This document shows, piece by piece, positions 7,287 to 20,365 of a DNA stretch of 22,439 bases. Position numbers and translations under genes: made by a program. Under the pieces are notes generated by a model. That model was not told where the DNA came from. It did no database searches and saw only the letters and a program-made list of their open reading frames with translations. Origin of the DNA: an uncultured bacterium (lineage in GTDB: Bacteria; Hydrogenedentota; Hydrogenedentia; Hydrogenedentales; JAEUWI01); the NCBI GenBank assembly GCA_963977445.1, contig CAXBPH010000096.1, positions 1 to 22,439 on the forward strand, written 5' to 3'. The stretch's first letter is position 1; the number at the start of each line of letters is the position of its first letter.

Positions 7287-7380
7287 GGGTGCCACCCTTA
7301 CAGACGTGAGGTACGAGCGGCTTTACGGGTGCAGGACCTAAACGGGACGCAAGCACCCGTAAGGTCCCCCGCGTAAGGGT
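7287..7380. repeat. Minimal inverted pair of GTGC-family hairpins (right end truncated)
   Basis: GGGTGCCACCCTTAC...TTACGGGTGC, 20-nt spacer, then GCACCCGTAA...GTAAGGGT. Confidence 0.8.
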
Positions 7381-12665: not shown

Positions 12666-13213
12666 GTTCCAGAAAAAGACGCCAAGGGTGTCACCTATAC
12701 AGACGTGAGGTACGAAGGGCCTTATGGGTGTGGGGCGCCCAAGTGAAGTAGTACGTTCTCAAATCGCCAAGCACCTCGGTCGTGCCGCGCGATCCGGTAC
12801 TCCGCTTCGTGCGTAGGTCTGACGGGCCTCAGTTCCAGAAAAAGAAACGGTGAAGGGTGCCACCTATACGGACGTGAGGAACGAACGGCCTTATGGGTGA
12901 AGGGTCCCCAAGAGGATTCGCCCTCTCTCAAATCGCCAAACTCCCCGGTCGTGCCGCGCGATCCGGTACTCCGGTTCGTGCGTAGGTCTGACGGGCCTCA
13001 GTTCCAGAAAAAGAAACTGTGAAGGGTGCCACCTATACGGATGTGAGGTACGAACGGCCTTATGGGTGAAGGGTCCCCAAGAGGATTCGCCCTCTCTCAA
13101 ATCGCCAAACTCCCCGGTCGTGCCGCGCGATCCGGTACTCCGGTTCGTGCGTATGGAGCAAATCGGCACCCGTAAGCTCCCCCGCTTCGCTCCTCCGCGT
13201 AAGGGTGGCACCC
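12666..13213. repeat. Tandem array of three ~169-bp units closed by one inverted hairpin
   Basis: GGGTG(T/C)CACC at 12686, 12855, 13024; GTGCCGCGCGATCC at 12782, 12951, 13120; inverted arm at 13166-13213. Confidence 0.95.
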
Positions 13214-13321
13214 CCGAAGTAGGCCATCCATCCAGCCGGTTGTTTCCACGCCCGTGAAACTTCATACCTTGGGGGCCAGTCCATTGTTGACTACACCCAA
13301 GCCAACCGAGAGGATTCCACC

Positions 13322-14626
13322 ATGCGCGTCCGTTGCCTGATTCCCGTCTTGTTGCTCGCCCTGATTCCCGCTTATGCCGCACTGGCCGACACCTTTAAGG
13401 TCGGCTACGCGAAGGCCGACATTACCCCCACGGCCCCCATGCCCATGTGGGGCTATGGCGCACGACACGATGCCCTCTCCCAGGGCGTACGCGACCCCCT
13501 CCACGCCAAAGCGGTCGTCATCGAAGCGGGGGACAAGAAACTCGCCCTCGTGGGCCTCGATTTGGGCCGTTCGCCTGAGGCGGACATGATGGACCGCATC
13601 CGCACCGCCGTAAAGGCCACTTCTGCCATCGACTTTGTCATGCTCTCCGGCTCCCACACTCACCACGGCCCGGTCCTGGAATTGCGCGACGAGGAAGGCA
13701 TGGGCAAAGGCAAATTCGACGATGCCGTGGCCTATGTGAAGACCCTCGAAGAAAAACTCATTGCGGTCATCAACGAGGCGGCAGCGAATACCCAGGACGC
13801 CCGTATCGGGTGGGGTTCGGCCGATGTCGATAGAAACCGGAACCGCCACAAGAAATTCGAACCCAAGCCCACCGACCCCGAGTTGACGGTCATCCGATTC
13901 GACGACCTCGACGGCAAACCCATCGCCCTCATGACCAACTTCTCTGCCCACCCCACCATGCTGCCCGGCGAAGACCTCCGATTTTCCGCCGAATGGCCCG
14001 GCGAAATGATGAAGTATGTGGAAGCCGAAATGGGCACCAACGTGGGCTTCCTCCAGGGCTCTGCCGGTGACCTTTCCTGCAAACCCACGGAGACCACCAA
14101 CACCATCGATACCTTCGGTCCCGCCATTGGCGCGGAGGTCGTCGAGATCGCCAAGGCTATCGAGACCAAGGTGCCTGAGAAGCCCTCCATCCAGGGCAAA
14201 GACCAGGACTTTCACTACGATACGCGCATACCCGTGGACAACGACATCGTAAAGGGTTTGCTGGCGAAGGCCTTCTTTCCCGAGTTTGGCGCAGCCGCCT
14301 TTTCGCCCATGAAAGGGAACAAGATTAATCCCCACCTCACCACCATCCTCATCAACAACGAGTTGGCTCTTGTCGGCGGCTCCGGTGAATTCTTCTGCGA
14401 CCACGCCAAGCGCCTCAAGGAACGGGCCTGGGATATGAAGGCGGTTTTCGTGGGCTACTGCAACGGACACCACATGTATTTCCCCACCATCGAAGGGGCT
14501 TCGGTGGGTGGTTACGGCGCCGATGCCACCGTAAGCTGGGTACCCCTCGGTGCGGGCGAAGAGATGGTCAACACCGCTCTCATCAACCTCTACACCATGC
14601 AAGGGAAATATAAACTGCCCATGTGA
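13322..14626 (+). CDS. Secreted neutral/alkaline ceramidase-like metallohydrolase
   Basis: Signal peptide; KVG.AKADITP, DPLHAKAVV, SHTHHGP, NFSAHPT, GEFF. Confidence 0.8.
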   Translation: MRVRCLIPVLLLALIPAYAALADTFKVGYAKADITPTAPMPMWGYGARHDALSQGVRDPLHAKAVVIEAGDKKLALVGLDLGRSPEADMMDRIRTAVKATSAIDFVMLSGSHTHHGPVLELRDEEGMGKGKFDDAVAYVKTLEEKLIAVINEAAANTQDARIGWGSADVDRNRNRHKKFEPKPTDPELTVIRFDDLDGKPIALMTNFSAHPTMLPGEDLRFSAEWPGEMMKYVEAEMGTNVGFLQGSAGDLSCKPTETTNTIDTFGPAIGAEVVEIAKAIETKVPEKPSIQGKDQDFHYDTRIPVDNDIVKGLLAKAFFPEFGAAAFSPMKGNKINPHLTTILINNELALVGGSGEFFCDHAKRLKERAWDMKAVFVGYCNGHHMYFPTIEGASVGGYGADATVSWVPLGAGEEMVNTALINLYTMQGKYKLPM

Positions 14627-14658
14627 GAAGGGCCTTGGCTCCAGAGCGACAATGGCAA

Positions 14659-14962
14659 GGGTGCCACCCGATCCCGCTGTAGGGCGTCCCAGACGCGCTT
14701 ACGGCGGGTTCGGGTGTCTTGAGCGAAATTGGCCCCAGTCTATCGTGTGCGACGACACCGTAGCTTTGTGTAAGACAAACGAGGGCGTCACGACGGTGTT
14801 TCACAAAGCTACGGCCCAGCGTTGTCTGCGGGCAATTTCGTGTCAGAGGCTCAAGGCACCCGAACGCACCACCCATTACGCCAGTTCAACACCGTACCTT
14901 CTCATCAGCAGAATATCCTCAGCCGCCCTCAATTGTGGACGTGGTGCGATCGGGTGGCACCC
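14659..14962. mobile_element. 304-bp REPIN/MITE-like nested palindrome
   Basis: Perfect 15-bp terminal IR GGGTGCCACCCGATC; inner IRs 14708-14724/14849-14865, 14724-14731/14833-14840 and 14758-14770/14802-14814. Mobility is inferred. Confidence 0.75.
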
Positions 14963-15031
14963 CGACGGTTTTTCTGGTGAAACCAAGAATTTGCGACGCT
15001 GTCCCATAAACTGCACCGTCGGCTCCCCTTT

Positions 15032-15040
15032 TGTTAGACT
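15032..15040 (+). promoter_or_regulatory. Putative extended -10 promoter of the fucosidase gene
   Basis: TGTTAGACT, 37 nt upstream of ATG 15078; no clear -35. Confidence 0.4.
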
Positions 15041-15077
15041 GCTTCCTGGACCTTTAAAAATCTTCAGGAGTACGATC

Positions 15078-16547
15078 ATGATTCGAATCGCCACCGTCCT
15101 TTTTCTCACCGCCACGGCGCTGCTCGCCACCACCACCCACGCCGCTGAGCCACCCGCGCCCTACGGAGCCGTCCCCACAGAGCGCCAGCTTGCCTGGCAC
15201 GAACTCGAATACTACGGCTTCCTCCATTTCACTATGAACACCTTCACGGGCAAAGAATGGGGTTATGGCGACGAAACACTGGAGACTTTCAATCCCACCG
15301 AACTCGATGTGAATCAATGGGTTCGCGTGGCGAAAGACGCGGGCATGAAGGGCCTCATCCTCACCTGCAAACACCACGATGGCTTCGTCTTGTGGCCCTC
15401 GAAATATACAGAGCACTCTATCGCGAACACGCCCTACAAAGACGGCAAGGGCGACATCGTGGGCGAGCTGGCGGCGGCCTGCAAGGAAGCCGGACTGACC
15501 TTCGGTGTCTACCTTTCCCCCTGGGACCGCAACCACCCCGAGTATGGCCGGCCCGCCTATGTGGAGTATTTTCGCAACCAACTTCGCGAACTCCTGACCA
15601 ACTACGGCACCATCCAGGAGGTCTGGTTCGACGGGGCCAATGGCGGCGATGGCTACTATGGTGGTGCGAAGGAAGAACGGCGTATTGACCGGTCCACTTA
15701 CTATGGCTGGGACGAGACCTGGGCCCTGGTTCGCGAATTGCAGCCCAACGCCATCCTGTTCTCGGACATCGGACCTGACATCCGTTGGGTGGGCAATGAA
15801 AAAGGCTTTGCGGGCGACCCCTCTTGGGCCACCTATACACCCCACGGCGTGGAAGAGGGCCAGGCCCCCGCACCGGGACTCGTGAAATATAAAGAGGGCG
15901 TCAATGGCCATGCCGATGGGGAACAGTGGTTGCCCGCCGAAGTGGATGTGAGCATTCGTCCGGGCTGGTTCTACCACGAAGACCAAAACGACAAGGTCCG
16001 CACCCCGGAGAACCTGCTCAATCTCTACTACCAGTCCGTGGGACGTGGCGCGTCCTTGTTGCTCAATATTCCACCCGATCCCCGTGGCCTGATTCATGAT
16101 GCCGACATCGCGTCCCTGCTGGAATTCCGTGCAATGCGCGATAGCATTTTCGACGTCAATCTGGCCGCCAATGCCACGGTGGACGACGCACCCGTGCGCG
16201 GCGATGATGCCCAGTTTGCAGCGTCGAATCTGCTCGACGGCGACCTGAAAACCTATTGGTCCACCGACGATGCAACGACGACGGCCTCCGTATCCATCAC
16301 CCTCGATAGGGAACAAACCTTCAACCACATCGTCCTGCAGGAATACATCGCCCTCGGCCAACGGGTGCGTGAGTTTTCCGTCGACGCCTGGGTTGATGGT
16401 GCCTGGAAGCAAATCGCGAAGGGTACGTCCATCGGATACAAGCGCATCCTGAAAACGGAACCGGTAACCACGACCAAGGTACGTCTCAACATCGATGCCG
16501 CAGCCGCCTGCCCCGCCATGGCCAGCTTCGAGCTCTATGAGGGCTGA
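15078..16547 (+). CDS. GH29 alpha-L-fucosidase with C-terminal F5/8 type C (CBM32-like) domain
   Basis: KHHDGF.LW, YLSPWD, nucleophile WFDG, SIRPGWFYH, LLLNIPP. AGGAG at 15066 and a signal peptide support ATG 15078. Confidence 0.93.
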   Translation: MIRIATVLFLTATALLATTTHAAEPPAPYGAVPTERQLAWHELEYYGFLHFTMNTFTGKEWGYGDETLETFNPTELDVNQWVRVAKDAGMKGLILTCKHHDGFVLWPSKYTEHSIANTPYKDGKGDIVGELAAACKEAGLTFGVYLSPWDRNHPEYGRPAYVEYFRNQLRELLTNYGTIQEVWFDGANGGDGYYGGAKEERRIDRSTYYGWDETWALVRELQPNAILFSDIGPDIRWVGNEKGFAGDPSWATYTPHGVEEGQAPAPGLVKYKEGVNGHADGEQWLPAEVDVSIRPGWFYHEDQNDKVRTPENLLNLYYQSVGRGASLLLNIPPDPRGLIHDADIASLLEFRAMRDSIFDVNLAANATVDDAPVRGDDAQFAASNLLDGDLKTYWSTDDATTTASVSITLDREQTFNHIVLQEYIALGQRVREFSVDAWVDGAWKQIAKGTSIGYKRILKTEPVTTTKVRLNIDAAAACPAMASFELYEG

Positions 16548-16684
16548 GTCCAAAGGGAGCGAACAGTCACTCCGGTGCCCGCCGCTTGGGAGTCTCCGGA
16601 CGATGAGCCGTTGGGCGTCGCCAAACGAGCGGAAGGCGGGGGAGTAGGGAGTCGCCCACGGTAGTCACGGAAGCTACGCTTCTA

Positions 16685-17116
16685 TCAAAGAACCGGTAGT
16701 ATATCTTTCGCCTGCGGCCACCAAAATTCCTGAATCCGATCGTCTCCCATCGGCATGAGACGGCTCACCTGCCAGCCGTTGTCGCGCAGGGTCAGTTCCA
16801 TGGATTGGGCACACGGTGTGTTCGTCGAATGAATCAGAATCGGGCAACAGGGTGCCTGTGTCGCGAGGAATTCCGCCACATCCCGCCCGTCTCCTGGGTC
16901 GGGCGCGTCCACCGTATCCGCGATGAGGTCGTGGTCCAATGCAATGAGTTGGGGCTCCTCCTTCCGATCAAGATAACCACGGATGAAAGTCGGGGCGGTG
17001 CACCAGTGAAGAAGGAGGGAGCCGTGCGCATTCTTGTGGAGAACCTCCGAAAAAGAGTCGATACGATCCGTGTCATCTTCAAGCATCAATATGCTCTTGC
17101 CTGTTGAGGCGGTCAT
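16685..17116 (-). CDS. Standalone DHD-type receiver domain (cyclic-phosphate-processing REC-like)
   Basis: LEDD..R, IALDHDL, GDG.DVAEFL, IHSTN...AQSM; lacks the canonical beta-5 Lys. Start overlaps the vapC stop (ATGA). Confidence 0.8.
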   Translation of the reverse strand: MTASTGKSILMLEDDTDRIDSFSEVLHKNAHGSLLLHWCTAPTFIRGYLDRKEEPQLIALDHDLIADTVDAPDPGDGRDVAEFLATQAPCCPILIHSTNTPCAQSMELTLRDNGWQVSRLMPMGDDRIQEFWWPQAKDILPVL

Positions 17117-17505
17117 GGCTTCACAAACCCTTCGGATTTTAGCGCCTTCTTGTCGAAGGTCAGCACGGTGTCGTATCCTCCGTCCCGCGCACTTTCACGG
17201 ATGAGGTAGTCCGAAAAATCCGCCGGGCCTTCCCGAAATGCCCGAAGGGCGCGACGACAACAGTCCAGATTCTCAATGTCGAATACGGATATGGATAAAA
17301 TACGCTCCAGGGTGTGGATACAATCGTCCCTCGCGACGTTGTAGGCGGTTCGTAAGACCCAATCGACCTCACACAACACCACCATGGAGATAAATGCGGG
17401 CGATTCTGGCGAAAGCCGCGTGATGGCTCGGTTGGCGGCGCGGGCTTGGGTAGCGTCATCTTGCACGAGATAGCGCACGAGGACGTTGGTGTCGAGGGCG
17501 ATCAC
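17113..17505 (-). CDS. vapC: VapC-family PIN-domain toxin
   Basis: DTNVLVR, VLCEV, ADFSD, TFD: acidic PIN residues intact. GTG start overlaps the antitoxin stop. Confidence 0.92.
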   Translation of the reverse strand: MIALDTNVLVRYLVQDDATQARAANRAITRLSPESPAFISMVVLCEVDWVLRTAYNVARDDCIHTLERILSISVFDIENLDCCRRALRAFREGPADFSDYLIRESARDGGYDTVLTFDKKALKSEGFVKP

Positions 17506-17741
17506 GGCAGCCGACCCGCCTGGCTTGCGATGGCGTCTTCCATATCTTCAAGTGAAACGGGCGGGCCGGAATAGCGTATGCAACCCTTCAGGACGGATAC
17601 ATCGAGGGTTCTTGGCCGGAGGGTGTAGCTGCCATCGCTCTGCTGCTCAAAGTATACCTGGTCGCCCGTTGTCAGGTGGAGTTCATCGCGGAGCGACTTG
17701 GGCAACGTGATCTGACCCTTACTGGTGATCGTGGCTTTCAT
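17502..17741 (-). CDS. AbrB/MazE/SpoVT-type antitoxin (VapB-like)
   Basis: ATITSKGQITLPK..R..L....GD.V.F; 79 aa; GAAAGGA RBS; directly upstream of vapC. Confidence 0.92.
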   Translation of the reverse strand: MKATITSKGQITLPKSLRDELHLTTGDQVYFEQQSDGSYTLRPRTLDVSVLKGCIRYSGPPVSLEDMEDAIASQAGRLP

Positions 17742-17767
17742 GAGTGTCCTTTCAATGGGGAAAAATT

Positions 17768-17804
17768 CTTACTTTAGTGTAAGGAAATGCAATGAATTCG
17801 TCAA
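17768..17804 (-). promoter_or_regulatory. Sigma70 promoter of the TA operon with overlapping palindromic operator
   Basis: -35 TTGACG (17804-17799), 17 nt, -10 TACACT (17781-17776); CTTAC-N6-GTAAG at 17768-17783. Confidence 0.75.
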
Positions 17805-18121
17805 GATTAACTTTAGTTCCGAATCTAAACGGAGAGGTAAGAATTCGTGTAAATGGGTGTCCATTCGTGGTTCCACCTTTTCGTTCGTTAAGCAATAAGG
17901 TCGAAACGTTGCCCGCCCCTTCGTGCCCTTCGTTTCGTCGTGGTAAAAATAAAATTGCGTTCACGTGCCCGATCAATCCAGCAAGCGGTTTCGCCACCTG
18001 TTTTGCGGGAAATTCATGCACCGTGGTAAACTTGCCGGAAAATTTATTCTATATGCGGTTAAGGGGCCTCCTCCCCGTGTTGCCCCCCTCGTGATCGCCC
18101 AATTTTTGGAGGATATTGACC

Positions 18122-18769
18122 ATGTCGAAAGTCTGCGTACGAAGTTTTGGTCTTTCCCTTGACGGCTACGGTGCCGGCCCAAACCAGGATCTCCAAAATC
18201 CACTGGGCGAGCGGGGGCCCTAAATCATGGAGTGGTTTTTCCCCACCCGTGTTTTTCAACAGATGCACGGTGACGGTGACGGCGAGACCGGTGTGGATAA
18301 TGAAATAGCGGAGCAGAGTTTCGCCGGTATAGGTGCCTGGATATTGGGCCGTAATATGTTTGGCCCCATTCGCGGACCATGGCTGGATGAAAGCTGGAAG
18401 GGCTGGTGGGGCGATGAGCCACCCTACCACACCCCGGTTTTCGTATTGACGAAGCACGCACGGCCCCCCCTGGAAATGACGGGCGGCACGATCTTCCACT
18501 TCGTTACCGAAGGGATTCATGTGGCGCTGGAACGGGCGAAAGAGGCTGCGGCAGGCGCCGATGTCCGAATCGGCGGTGGTGTATCGACGATACGCCAGTA
18601 TCTGGAGGCAGGGTTAATCGATGAACTCCACCTCGCGGTGCGGCCCTTGCTGCTCGGTGCGGGCGAAAATTTGTTCAACGGGCTCAATCTCTCGGCCCTG
18701 GGCTACGAATGTGAAAAGCACGTGCATGGCGAACGGTCAAACCATGTGTTTATTCGAAAACGGGTATAG
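18122..18769 (+). pseudogene. Dihydrofolate-reductase-like (RibD C-terminal domain) gene with in-frame TAA at 18221-18223
   Basis: GGAGG at 18108, then ATG 18122 encodes MSKVCVRSFGLSLDGYGAGPNQDLQNPLGERGP*IMEWFF, in frame with ORF 18227..18769 (ILGRNMF, PPYHTPVFVLT, IGGG, IDELHL). Confidence 0.85.
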
Positions 18770-18797
18770 GCCCGAACCAGTACCGCAGTGCCGACAA

Positions 18798-19037
18798 GGG
18801 TGCCACCTATACGGACGTGAGGCACGAACGTCCTTATGGGTGCCGAGCGCCCAAGAGGAATAGCCCTTTTCCAAACAGCCTAACACTCCGGAGGTGCCGC
18901 GCGATCCGGTACTCCGGTTCGTGCGTACGGAGCAAAACGGCTCCGTTCCATTGAAAGCAAACCCGATTCGGGCGTCCGAGCCGACTGGTGGCGTCACGTC
19001 GTAGTGACCGTAAGCTCCCCGCGTACAGGTGGCACCC
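18798..19037. mobile_element. 240-bp composite REPIN-like element of three GTGC-family hairpins
   Basis: 15/16 terminal IR (GGGTGCCACCTATACG / CGTACAGGTGGCACCC); internal hairpin 18894-18925; same layout as 13024-13213. Confidence 0.8.
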
Positions 19038-19360
19038 ATCGGGCACGTCTTCGCCCCGTTGTCATTTTTCTGGATCCGTGAGTGGTTATTTCTGCCTTCC
19101 AGTGGGCCAACAGCCCATGAACCAAACTGAAACAGGATTTCAAGGCCTGAAGGCTCGCTTCATAGCCTCCCACAAGGCCCGGGGTTTCCCGCAGGTTTCG
19201 GATTTTCCACACCACGGCAATAGGGGAACGGAACCACCATAAACCCAGACGTCATTGTCGTTTGCCCGTTCACCTGCATGCGCATAGAACCGTGTAAGTC
19301 AAAGCATAACAAGCGTGCACCGTACCATCAACACCGCCTGACCTGGCATGGAATGCCCCG

Positions 19361-19369
19361 TGCTATACT
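19361..19369 (+). promoter_or_regulatory. Putative extended -10 promoter of rarD
   Basis: TGCTATACT, 45 nt upstream of the GTG start. Confidence 0.45.
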
Positions 19370-19414
19370 CTGTCTTTCGCAGCCAATCCGAATTTCTAAC
19401 CAAGGCAGTACTAC

Positions 19415-20365
19415 GTGACGAAGTCTCCAAGCAATTACCCCGGTATCATTATGGGTTTTTCCGCCTACGCCCTCTGGGGATTCTTTCCCATCTACTTCTA
19501 TTTCCTGCGCTTTGTGGGGAGCTGGGAGGTGTTGGCCCATCGCATTGTGTGGTCCGTAGTGACCCTGTTGGTCATCCTCGCCTGGCAGGGCCGTTTTCGC
19601 TCCGTCTTTGGCGCGTTGCGCTCAAAAAGGCAGGTTGCCCTGCTGGCCTTTGCCTCTCTCATGATCACGGGGAACTGGCTGGTCTATATCTACGCGGTGA
19701 CGACCGAACACACCATTGACGCCAGCATGGGCTATTTCATCAACCCCATCTTACTCATCCTTATCGGCCTCATATTTTTCAAAGAACGTCTCAATCGCTA
19801 CCAGGTGATCTGCTTGTCCCTAGCGGGGGTCGGCATTGCTTATCAGCTCATAACCCTCGGCGGCTTTTCCTGGATATCCCTGTCTCTGCCCCTGCTATTC
19901 GGTTTTTATGGCGTCGTCAAAAAACGCCTCGAACTCGATGCGGTGGCGAGTCTCTTTCTTGAGACCACCATGGTCTTACCGGCGGCCCTGGTCTACCTCA
20001 TCTATCTTGGGGTCGATGGCCAATCCGCATTGATAAATGGAACGCTGACCGTACAGCTCTTACTCCTGGCCACCGGTATATCGACCACCATGCCGTTGCT
20101 CCTTTTTTCCGGCGGTGCCCGGCGCTTGCCCCTCAACACCATGGGCTTCCTTCAATACATCACACCCTCGCTGCAATTTGCCATCGGTCTCTTTGTCTTC
20201 AACGAAGCACTGAACACCGACAAACTCATCGGGTTTATCTTTGTATGGGCCGGACTGCTCGTGCTAATCCTGGGGCAAGGTTCACGGATGATGCGGAACC
20301 GTAATACCCCCGTCATGTCGCCCGACATGGCCCAAGCCTGCGTCGAGGCGACGGACGAGGTGTAG
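19415..20365 (+). CDS. rarD: EamA/DMT-family transporter RarD
   Basis: AYALWG..PIYF, EVLAHRIVWS, NWLVYIYAV, ASMGYFINP, GFLQYITPSLQF; about 10 hydrophobic segments. Confidence 0.92.
   Translation: MTKSPSNYPGIIMGFSAYALWGFFPIYFYFLRFVGSWEVLAHRIVWSVVTLLVILAWQGRFRSVFGALRSKRQVALLAFASLMITGNWLVYIYAVTTEHTIDASMGYFINPILLILIGLIFFKERLNRYQVICLSLAGVGIAYQLITLGGFSWISLSLPLLFGFYGVVKKRLELDAVASLFLETTMVLPAALVYLIYLGVDGQSALINGTLTVQLLLLATGISTTMPLLLFSGGARRLPLNTMGFLQYITPSLQFAIGLFVFNEALNTDKLIGFIFVWAGLLVLILGQGSRMMRNRNTPVMSPDMAQACVEATDEV

Follow-up and report, generated by a model that had tools for sequence, protein, structure and literature searches.

A small gene for a receiver-like protein overlaps the end of a vapBC toxin-antitoxin pair in an uncultured bacterium of the phylum Hydrogenedentota, and the question raised by this locus is whether the third gene is a dedicated partner of the toxin or a passenger. 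The locus lies on a 22,439-nt stretch of DNA (contig CAXBPH010000096.1), which is one entire contig and is referred to as the window in the following. The source genome (G000) has a size of 7.1 Mb and is 94% complete. The third gene product belongs to the cREC family. The main text of the paper that established this family by the context of its genes predicts that cREC proteins open cyclic phosphates, either on RNA ends or on ADP-ribose (Iyer et al. 2021, PMC7824862). In the accessible text of a later study, the activity of cREC is called uncharacterised, and a jumbo-phage gene cluster sirtuin-2H-Nudix-cREC-PIN is reported (Iyer et al. 2022, PMC9503650). A first-pass annotation of the window had proposed a three-gene cut-and-heal module, in which the third protein would process RNA ends made by the toxin.

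Organization of the locus

The locus consists of three minus-strand open reading frames at positions 17741-17502 (79 aa), 17505-17113 (130 aa) and 17116-16685 (143 aa). As described before, they are joined by 4-nt overlaps, GTGA at 17505-17502 between vapB and vapC and ATGA at 17116-17113 between vapC and the cREC gene. Overlaps of -4 or -1 between genes are common in the source genome and were found in 79 of 577 same-strand gene pairs on 50 of its contigs, as delimited by a crude gene caller. Judged from the overlaps, co-transcription of all three genes is plausible.

The first product (P0003) matches Pfam MazE_antitoxin (PF04014; 42.5 bits, cut-off 24.7) and the AbrB family TIGR01439 (45 bits), and the second (P0002) matches Pfam PIN (PF01850; 36.9 bits, cut-off 23.6), which confirms the earlier assignment as AbrB-type antitoxin and VapC. 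The acidic tetrad of VapC (D5, E46, D99 and D118) is intact, and these columns are conserved in 33 homologues. The antitoxin gene is located upstream of the PIN toxin gene, as in type II toxin-antitoxin systems of the VapBC class.

A gap of 137 bp (16548..16684), unique in the genome, separates the cREC stop codon from that of a convergent alpha-L-fucosidase frame on the plus strand (14550..16547; PF01120, 140 bits), and neither an attC site nor a terminator match was found in it. The fucosidase gene, whose true start is likely later than the longest open frame at 14550, shows 73-80% DNA identity to copies in the related genomes G003, G004 and G005 and served as the landmark for the orthologous site. 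An Rfam search of positions 16400-19500 gave no match at E<=0.1, and PADLOC gave none for the three proteins. The stretches 17843-17951, 12680-13220, 18795-18842, 7287-7331 and 369-845 of the window comprise short intergenic repeats occurring genome-wide, of which two immediately precede the vapB promoter, and, near the contig start, an IS200-like (Y1_Tnp) gene.

Promoter and operator of the vapBC pair

A sigma-70-like promoter, TTGACG-17 nt-TACACT, is predicted on the minus strand at 17776..17804, and a ribosome-binding site, AAGGA (17747..17751), precedes the vapB start by 5 nt. Of the near-consensus promoter and operator noted in the first-pass annotation, the promoter match to 9 of 12 consensus positions is, taken alone, at chance level (2 found versus 1.0 +/- 1.1 expected), whereas TTGAC and the -10 region are kept before the vapB orthologues of G005 and G003, and so is a palindrome over the -10 box (17768..17783). 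This palindrome, CTTAC-N6-GTAAG, recurs with its pattern exact upstream of vapB in the source genome, in G005 (L051) and in G003 (L052), and has two copies in the 7.1-Mb genome. By analogy with enteric vapBC operons, as far as described in the available part of PMC3378870, it is likely the autorepression operator bound by VapB or the VapBC complex. A second promoter-like match, CTGACC-16-TAAAAT (17136..17163, minus strand), inside the end of vapC and 20 nt 5' of the cREC start, is at chance level, and its -10 box is not conserved in the orthologues of G005 or G003; it could give the cREC gene a transcript start of its own.

The arrangement resembles vapBC of Salmonella LT2 (PMC3378870, available part) in the overlapping genes, with an AbrB antitoxin upstream of a PIN toxin, and in the inverted-repeat operator over the promoter. 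It differs in that one operator is recognised rather than two and that a third gene is appended.

The third gene encodes a cREC protein

The product of the third gene (P0001; 16685..17116, minus strand) matches Pfam cREC_REC (PF20274) with 32.3 bits (cut-off 27) and has no Response_reg match at E<=0.1, so the comparison of both profiles proposed in the first-pass annotation came out in favor of cREC. The best PDB sequence match has an E value of 0.27. Receiver domains of the PDB match the AF2 model (mean pLDDT 88.4), for which the best viral structural match, in BFVD, is a cREC protein (E 2e-7). Model and residues bear out the receiver fold and the motifs E13-D14-D15..R18, D61-H62-D63 and H96-S97-T98-N99 recognised before. 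Nearly all motif residues are at least 89% conserved in 123 homologues; position S97 is always Ser or Thr, and D14, D61 and D63 are at least 98% conserved. The start gives the full first strand of the fold, and all motif residues are intact.

A lysine at the end of strand beta-5 is a functional feature of canonical response-regulator receivers. The lysines of P0001 are K7, K28, K52 and K137, none of which ends beta-5 (M121-P122), in line with the earlier observation; this position is Ala, Val, Ser or Leu in the cREC family and Met in P0001. Likewise, no histidine kinase was found by Pfam among the 18 main ORFs of the window, as had been stated, and the 393 ORFs of 47 cREC loci from genomes include one kinase gene, three genes away (L041). 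Profile, missing beta-5 lysine and gene context led us to reject a canonical receiver.

Some features of P0001 depart from the family. The column of residue 127 is occupied by Trp in 94% of the 123 rows and in all 21 close homologues, and P0001 has Arg (W127R). The protein shows eight departures from the consensus of its close clade, the second highest number of 22. At strongly conserved columns, it differs at 1 of 24, and 74 of the 123 rows differ at one or more. The codon use of the gene is near that of the genome (16th percentile), which argues that the gain is not very recent.

The orthologous site in related genomes

The relatives available for comparison are incomplete assemblies. G005, of the same genus, shows the same convergent order, in which vapC (66% identity; 130 aa, the same length as in the window) and vapB (72%) come after the fucosidase gene. 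The promoter and operator are shared as well, and a third gene is absent. The place of the cREC gene is taken by about 190 bp of repeat-type DNA, in which no match to a cREC remnant was found. G003 carries a two-gene vapBC copy elsewhere in the genome, with intact catalytic residues and a VapB orthologue of 65% identity. The site itself is variable, since the fucosidase gene lies directly beside EamA in G004 and four other genes are found at this place in G003.

G000 and G005 provide a clean natural comparison with and without cREC. In the VapC of G005 (L051:1495-1887), the first catalytic aspartate, Asp5, is replaced by Tyr, which makes this locus a weak control for an active toxin. A second vapC copy of G005 (L058) is broken, and to judge from these sequences the vapBC pair may be decaying in that lineage.

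Linkage of cREC and vapBC genes elsewhere

The survey comprised cREC loci from genomes (47), metagenomes (74, partly redundant), further planctomycetes (12) and the same phylum (1); L049, a weak match on the opposite strand, was dropped before counting, and L223 duplicates L012. A coupled cREC-vapBC arrangement was found in none of these 134 loci (121 + 12 + 1). With the window VapB and VapC as queries, tblastn matched none of the 121 genome and metagenome loci, and a Pfam scan of 574 neighboring ORFs (393 from genome loci and the 181 nearest from metagenome loci) yielded no PIN, MazE or RNA ligase family at E<=1e-5. At this threshold the scan missed PIN genes that a local PIN profile, run in six frames, detected in 8 of the 121 loci, falling into three near-identical groups, and the count from the local profile was therefore relied on. 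These genes lie at least 440 bp from cREC, as separate units or on the other strand; the profile found none in the 12 further planctomycete loci. By eye, a vapBC-like pair was recognised at the end of L230, 1.07 kb downstream of cREC.

In the reverse direction, cREC was found near VapC in none of 43 informative VapC loci, four of 47 having been left out with less than 110 bp downstream. A PIN fusion occurs in none of the 37 homologues of at least 180 aa among the best 150 of 2,286 profile matches. Among 401 planctomycete genomes, 30 have VapC-like matches, 13 have cREC and two have both, as against about one expected, and in both genomes the genes are on different contigs. The recurrent linkage with PIN and AbrB genes that the first-pass annotation had proposed to survey therefore did not appear, and the cut-and-heal module proposed there is not supported: among the loci examined the linkage is confined to the source genome, which is the first of the refuting outcomes named in that annotation, and the orthologous vapBC in G005 lacks the third gene. 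Furthermore, outside integron arrays, 4-nt overlaps of cREC with an unrelated upstream gene were seen in 5 of 75 loci (thiolase three times, Uma2 and DUF1501), so the overlap alone does not imply partnership. One subclade is found behind thiolase genes (L131, L132, L134, L136 and L146); overlaps of 4 nt are frequent there, and in some cases a Uma2 nuclease gene separates the two.

Several loci place cREC near toxin-antitoxin genes of other kinds. In L140:77-2072 (metagenome contig JAABUN010019596.1), a cREC-KptA fusion (PTS_2-RNA, 165 bits) is preceded at a distance of 14 nt by a ParE/RelE-like toxin gene together with a short gene, and another antitoxin/ParE pair follows it. This single locus is a better candidate for a cut-and-heal system than the window locus. 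Fusions of cREC to PF09720 antitoxin domains are seen in P0154 and, below cut-off, in P0132, and the cREC frame near the vapBC-like pair of L230 (L230:1339-1944) has an antitoxin-like N-terminal extension; all of these could be products of read-through or of hotspots. In L082 (502-882) and L118, the longest cREC frame opens only a few bases after the end of a barstar-like gene, and an attC-like site separates that gene from the cREC core. The proximity of cREC to toxin-antitoxin genes is explained by hotspots that collect small mobile genes, but a weak functional link could account for it too.

Distribution and phylogeny of the cREC clade

The cREC clade of the window is cellular and mostly planctomycete. 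The planctomycete hosts belong to a different phylum, judging from a group of more than 400 genomes from which they were sampled as compared with 135 in the phylum of the source genome. It was found in one of nine genomes of the genus (0 of 8 besides the source genome), in none of 14 other genomes of the family and in 2 of 135 genomes of the phylum. A search of the phylum with PF20274 gave matches in 8 of 135 genomes, six of which are weak matches in frames of 469-619 aa. The two copies of the phylum do not form one clade, as this topology was rejected in a quick tree of 49 rows (p-AU 0.00066). P0001 groups with mostly planctomycete sequences (SH-aLRT 91-92, quick trees) and has the longest end branch in its clade (1.49). 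Searches of plasmids and viral contigs found no relative of this clade. Judged by this distribution, a gain of cREC in the source lineage would be the simplest history.

The other copy of the phylum (G110; L179 / L212:6901-7519) is a cassette between two attC-like sites. By eye, its contig also holds several toxin-antitoxin-like pairs at a distance of at least 2.7 kb.

Many homologues are integron cassettes

A strict scan detected an attC-like site after cREC in 16 of 105 loci, as against 0 of 1050 shuffled sequences and 0 of 105 reverse strands. The hairpin has the form AAC, 5 nt, L box with an extra base, L box, 5-6 nt, GTT. With a covariance model built from 32 such sites, a flanking site was recognised in 43 of 121 loci, comprising 17 of the 47 from genomes and 26 of the 74 from metagenomes; 6 and 23 of these, respectively, are outside the training loci. 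Integron integrase (IntI) matches above cut-off lie directly upstream of the arrays L012 and L033, the latter assigned to its contig from adjoining coordinates. On the strength of these sites, this cREC clade is often moved as a single-gene cassette. The arrays also hold immunity and toxin-antitoxin genes. Planctomycete arrays with attC sites of about 90 bp and of one type include L007, L009, L012, L014, L016, L022, L033, L036, L040, L042, L043 and others, and their cassettes encode, among others, SUKH, ankyrin, DSP phosphatase and ADP-ribosylglycohydrolase proteins; pieces of group II intron reverse transcriptases or maturases are present in L040, L043 and L096.

These loci resemble the integron cassettes and CALIN arrays of PMC4889954 (available part), in that many homologues are single genes bounded by attC, two arrays lie beside IntI and toxin-antitoxin genes are carried too. 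The window copy differs from this picture. Neither the pattern scan nor the covariance model found an attC site at it (best E 3.4), the source genome yielded no attC at E<=0.01 among the 150 candidates scored out of 1992, and IntI matches in the 94% complete assembly stayed below cut-off (best TIGR02249 match 84.8 bits versus 265). A GTT at cassette-like distance upstream of cREC was rejected as a trace of insertion; it is ancestral vapC sequence common to G005 and G003. By analogy with its relatives, the window copy may have arrived as a cassette as well.

Predicted chemistry of cREC and the ends made by VapC

P0001 shares with the published cREC family (PMC7824862 and PMC9503650, as far as their text is accessible) the Pfam match above cut-off, the receiver fold, the catalytic aspartates and the lack of a cognate kinase. 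It differs from the contexts described there in that no RNA ligase, sirtuin, 2H or Nudix gene lies beside it; unless VapC itself is counted, no RNA-repair or NAD/ADP-ribose gene is present at the window locus. The jumbo-phage cluster likewise has cREC and a PIN RNase in one neighborhood, but, according to the accessible text of PMC9503650, it is a recurrent phage RNA-repair cluster, whereas the window holds one chromosomal vapBC and no other repair gene.

Among the homologues, fusions of cREC to an ADP-ribosylglycohydrolase (ARH) domain account for 4 of the 37 proteins of at least 180 aa within the best 150 of 2,286 profile matches. Such fusions recur in P0072, P0080, P0097, P0120, L123:2857-4338 and L137, and a PP2C gene directly follows the fusion in L123 and L137. 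Altogether, cREC loci add ARH, KptA and LMW-phosphatase fusions as well as PP2C, DSP and PARG neighbors. The ARH and KptA fusions agree with the prediction of ADP-ribose and RNA ends as substrates in the accessible text of PMC7824862 and PMC9503650. As read from these domain combinations, the loci support a putative phosphoester-clearing role of cREC that is tied more to ADP-ribose than to VapC.

The reported ends made by VapC vary, as the first-pass annotation had cautioned. A review gives 3'-OH and 5'-phosphate ends (PMC7180214, available part), and 5'-OH ends are given in the accessible text of PMC6459853 (see also PMC7790460). In the part of PMC7790460 available, VapC is cited as activating an RtcB operon. 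The source genome encodes RtcB and has three ARH matches; a match to KptA was not found in it.

Most probable reading and alternatives

On balance, we consider it probable that the locus is an ordinary two-gene vapBC with a lineage-specific cREC passenger, likely gained horizontally and likely co-expressed, and not a dedicated partner of VapC. Relatives of this cREC are often found as solitary integron cassettes, which makes the window copy likely an acquired passenger and not a dedicated RNA-repair partner. From known VapBC biology, VapB would bind VapC and the complex would repress the promoter at CTTAC-N6-GTAAG; under stress, loss of VapB would free the VapC RNase and induce the operon. Ribosomes that end vapC would restart at the overlapping ATG, and cREC would thus be made whenever vapBC is induced. 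The protein is predicted to be a small phosphoesterase that uses D61 together with H62, D63, H96 and R18, and its substrates would most likely be cyclic-phosphate or ADP-ribose-phosphate compounds in general. The passenger reading has points against it. The exact ATGA overlap, the full start and the intact motifs fit selection for coupling, and cREC does occur near toxin-antitoxin genes elsewhere (the 8 of 121 loci with PIN genes, L140, P0154/P0132 and L230).

An unlikely alternative is recent co-option: a mobile cREC captured behind vapC and placed under VapB control would trim RNA ends made by VapC from cyclic to linear phosphate and in this way aid or hinder their repair by RtcB, and the overlap would have been selected for this resetting during recovery. 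The exact coupling and intact motifs would suit it, as would the predicted cyclic-phosphate chemistry (PMC7824862, main text), the cREC-PIN neighborhood of jumbo phages (accessible text of PMC9503650), the 5'-OH ends (PMC6459853, available part), the cited activation of an RtcB operon by VapC (PMC7790460, available part), the presence of RtcB in the source genome and the toxin directly before the cREC-KptA fusion of L140. Against it stand the linkage in one genome, the absence of RNA ligase families from the 574 neighboring ORFs and of a KptA match from the source genome, and the two-gene copy that G003 keeps with intact catalytic residues; furthermore, the ends given in the accessible part of the review PMC7180214 would leave no cyclic phosphate to resolve.

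It is somewhat less likely still that cREC is a decaying relic, open as a frame but under relaxed selection and doing nothing for the cell. W127R at a near-invariant Trp, the departures from the clade consensus and the long end branch point in this direction, but the branch may only reflect an unsampled donor, the one deviating column of 24 is matched by one or more in 74 of 123 rows, the gene has neither stop nor frameshift, all catalytic-motif columns are kept and the predicted fold is confident.

Two further proposals are highly improbable. Phosphorylation of D61 by a kinase encoded elsewhere, tuning vapBC, would suit the receiver fold, in which the acidic pair, D61 and S97 occupy their customary positions, but not the lack of a Response_reg match, of the beta-5 lysine in P0001 and its family and of kinase genes beside the window copy and, L041 apart, in the 47 loci. 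Equally improbable is binding of cREC to VapC or VapBC as a second antitoxin or anti-repressor, for which coupled translation would give near-equal amounts and the antitoxin-domain fusion in P0154 offers a parallel, but the families have no shared history, co-occurring in 2 of 401 planctomycete genomes on different contigs.

Implications

In the literature searched, which was mostly open-access, cREC was found in PMC7824862 (main text) and PMC9503650, and a search for three-component vapBC systems gave no case with cREC among the matches listed. The cREC-PIN neighborhood as such is already published for jumbo phages (accessible text of PMC9503650), and the two parts joined in the window are known families, their union being apparently a one-lineage event. 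The same literature yielded no description of this cREC clade as a planctomycete integron cassette partnered with ADP-ribosylglycohydrolase, KptA and phosphatases. As it most likely stands, the vapBC-cREC union matters little in itself; of modest value are the cassette habit of this clade and the comparison of G000 with G005. If co-option were true, however improbable, cREC would here have its first functional setting and first tested function, and the locus would illustrate the birth of cut-and-heal modules from cassette genes. Homologues are present in the cultured strains Blastopirellula marina, Lacipirellula limnantheis and Planctopirus hydrillae, and the circulation of cREC cassettes in Planctomycetota suggests that cREC confers a benefit on its own.
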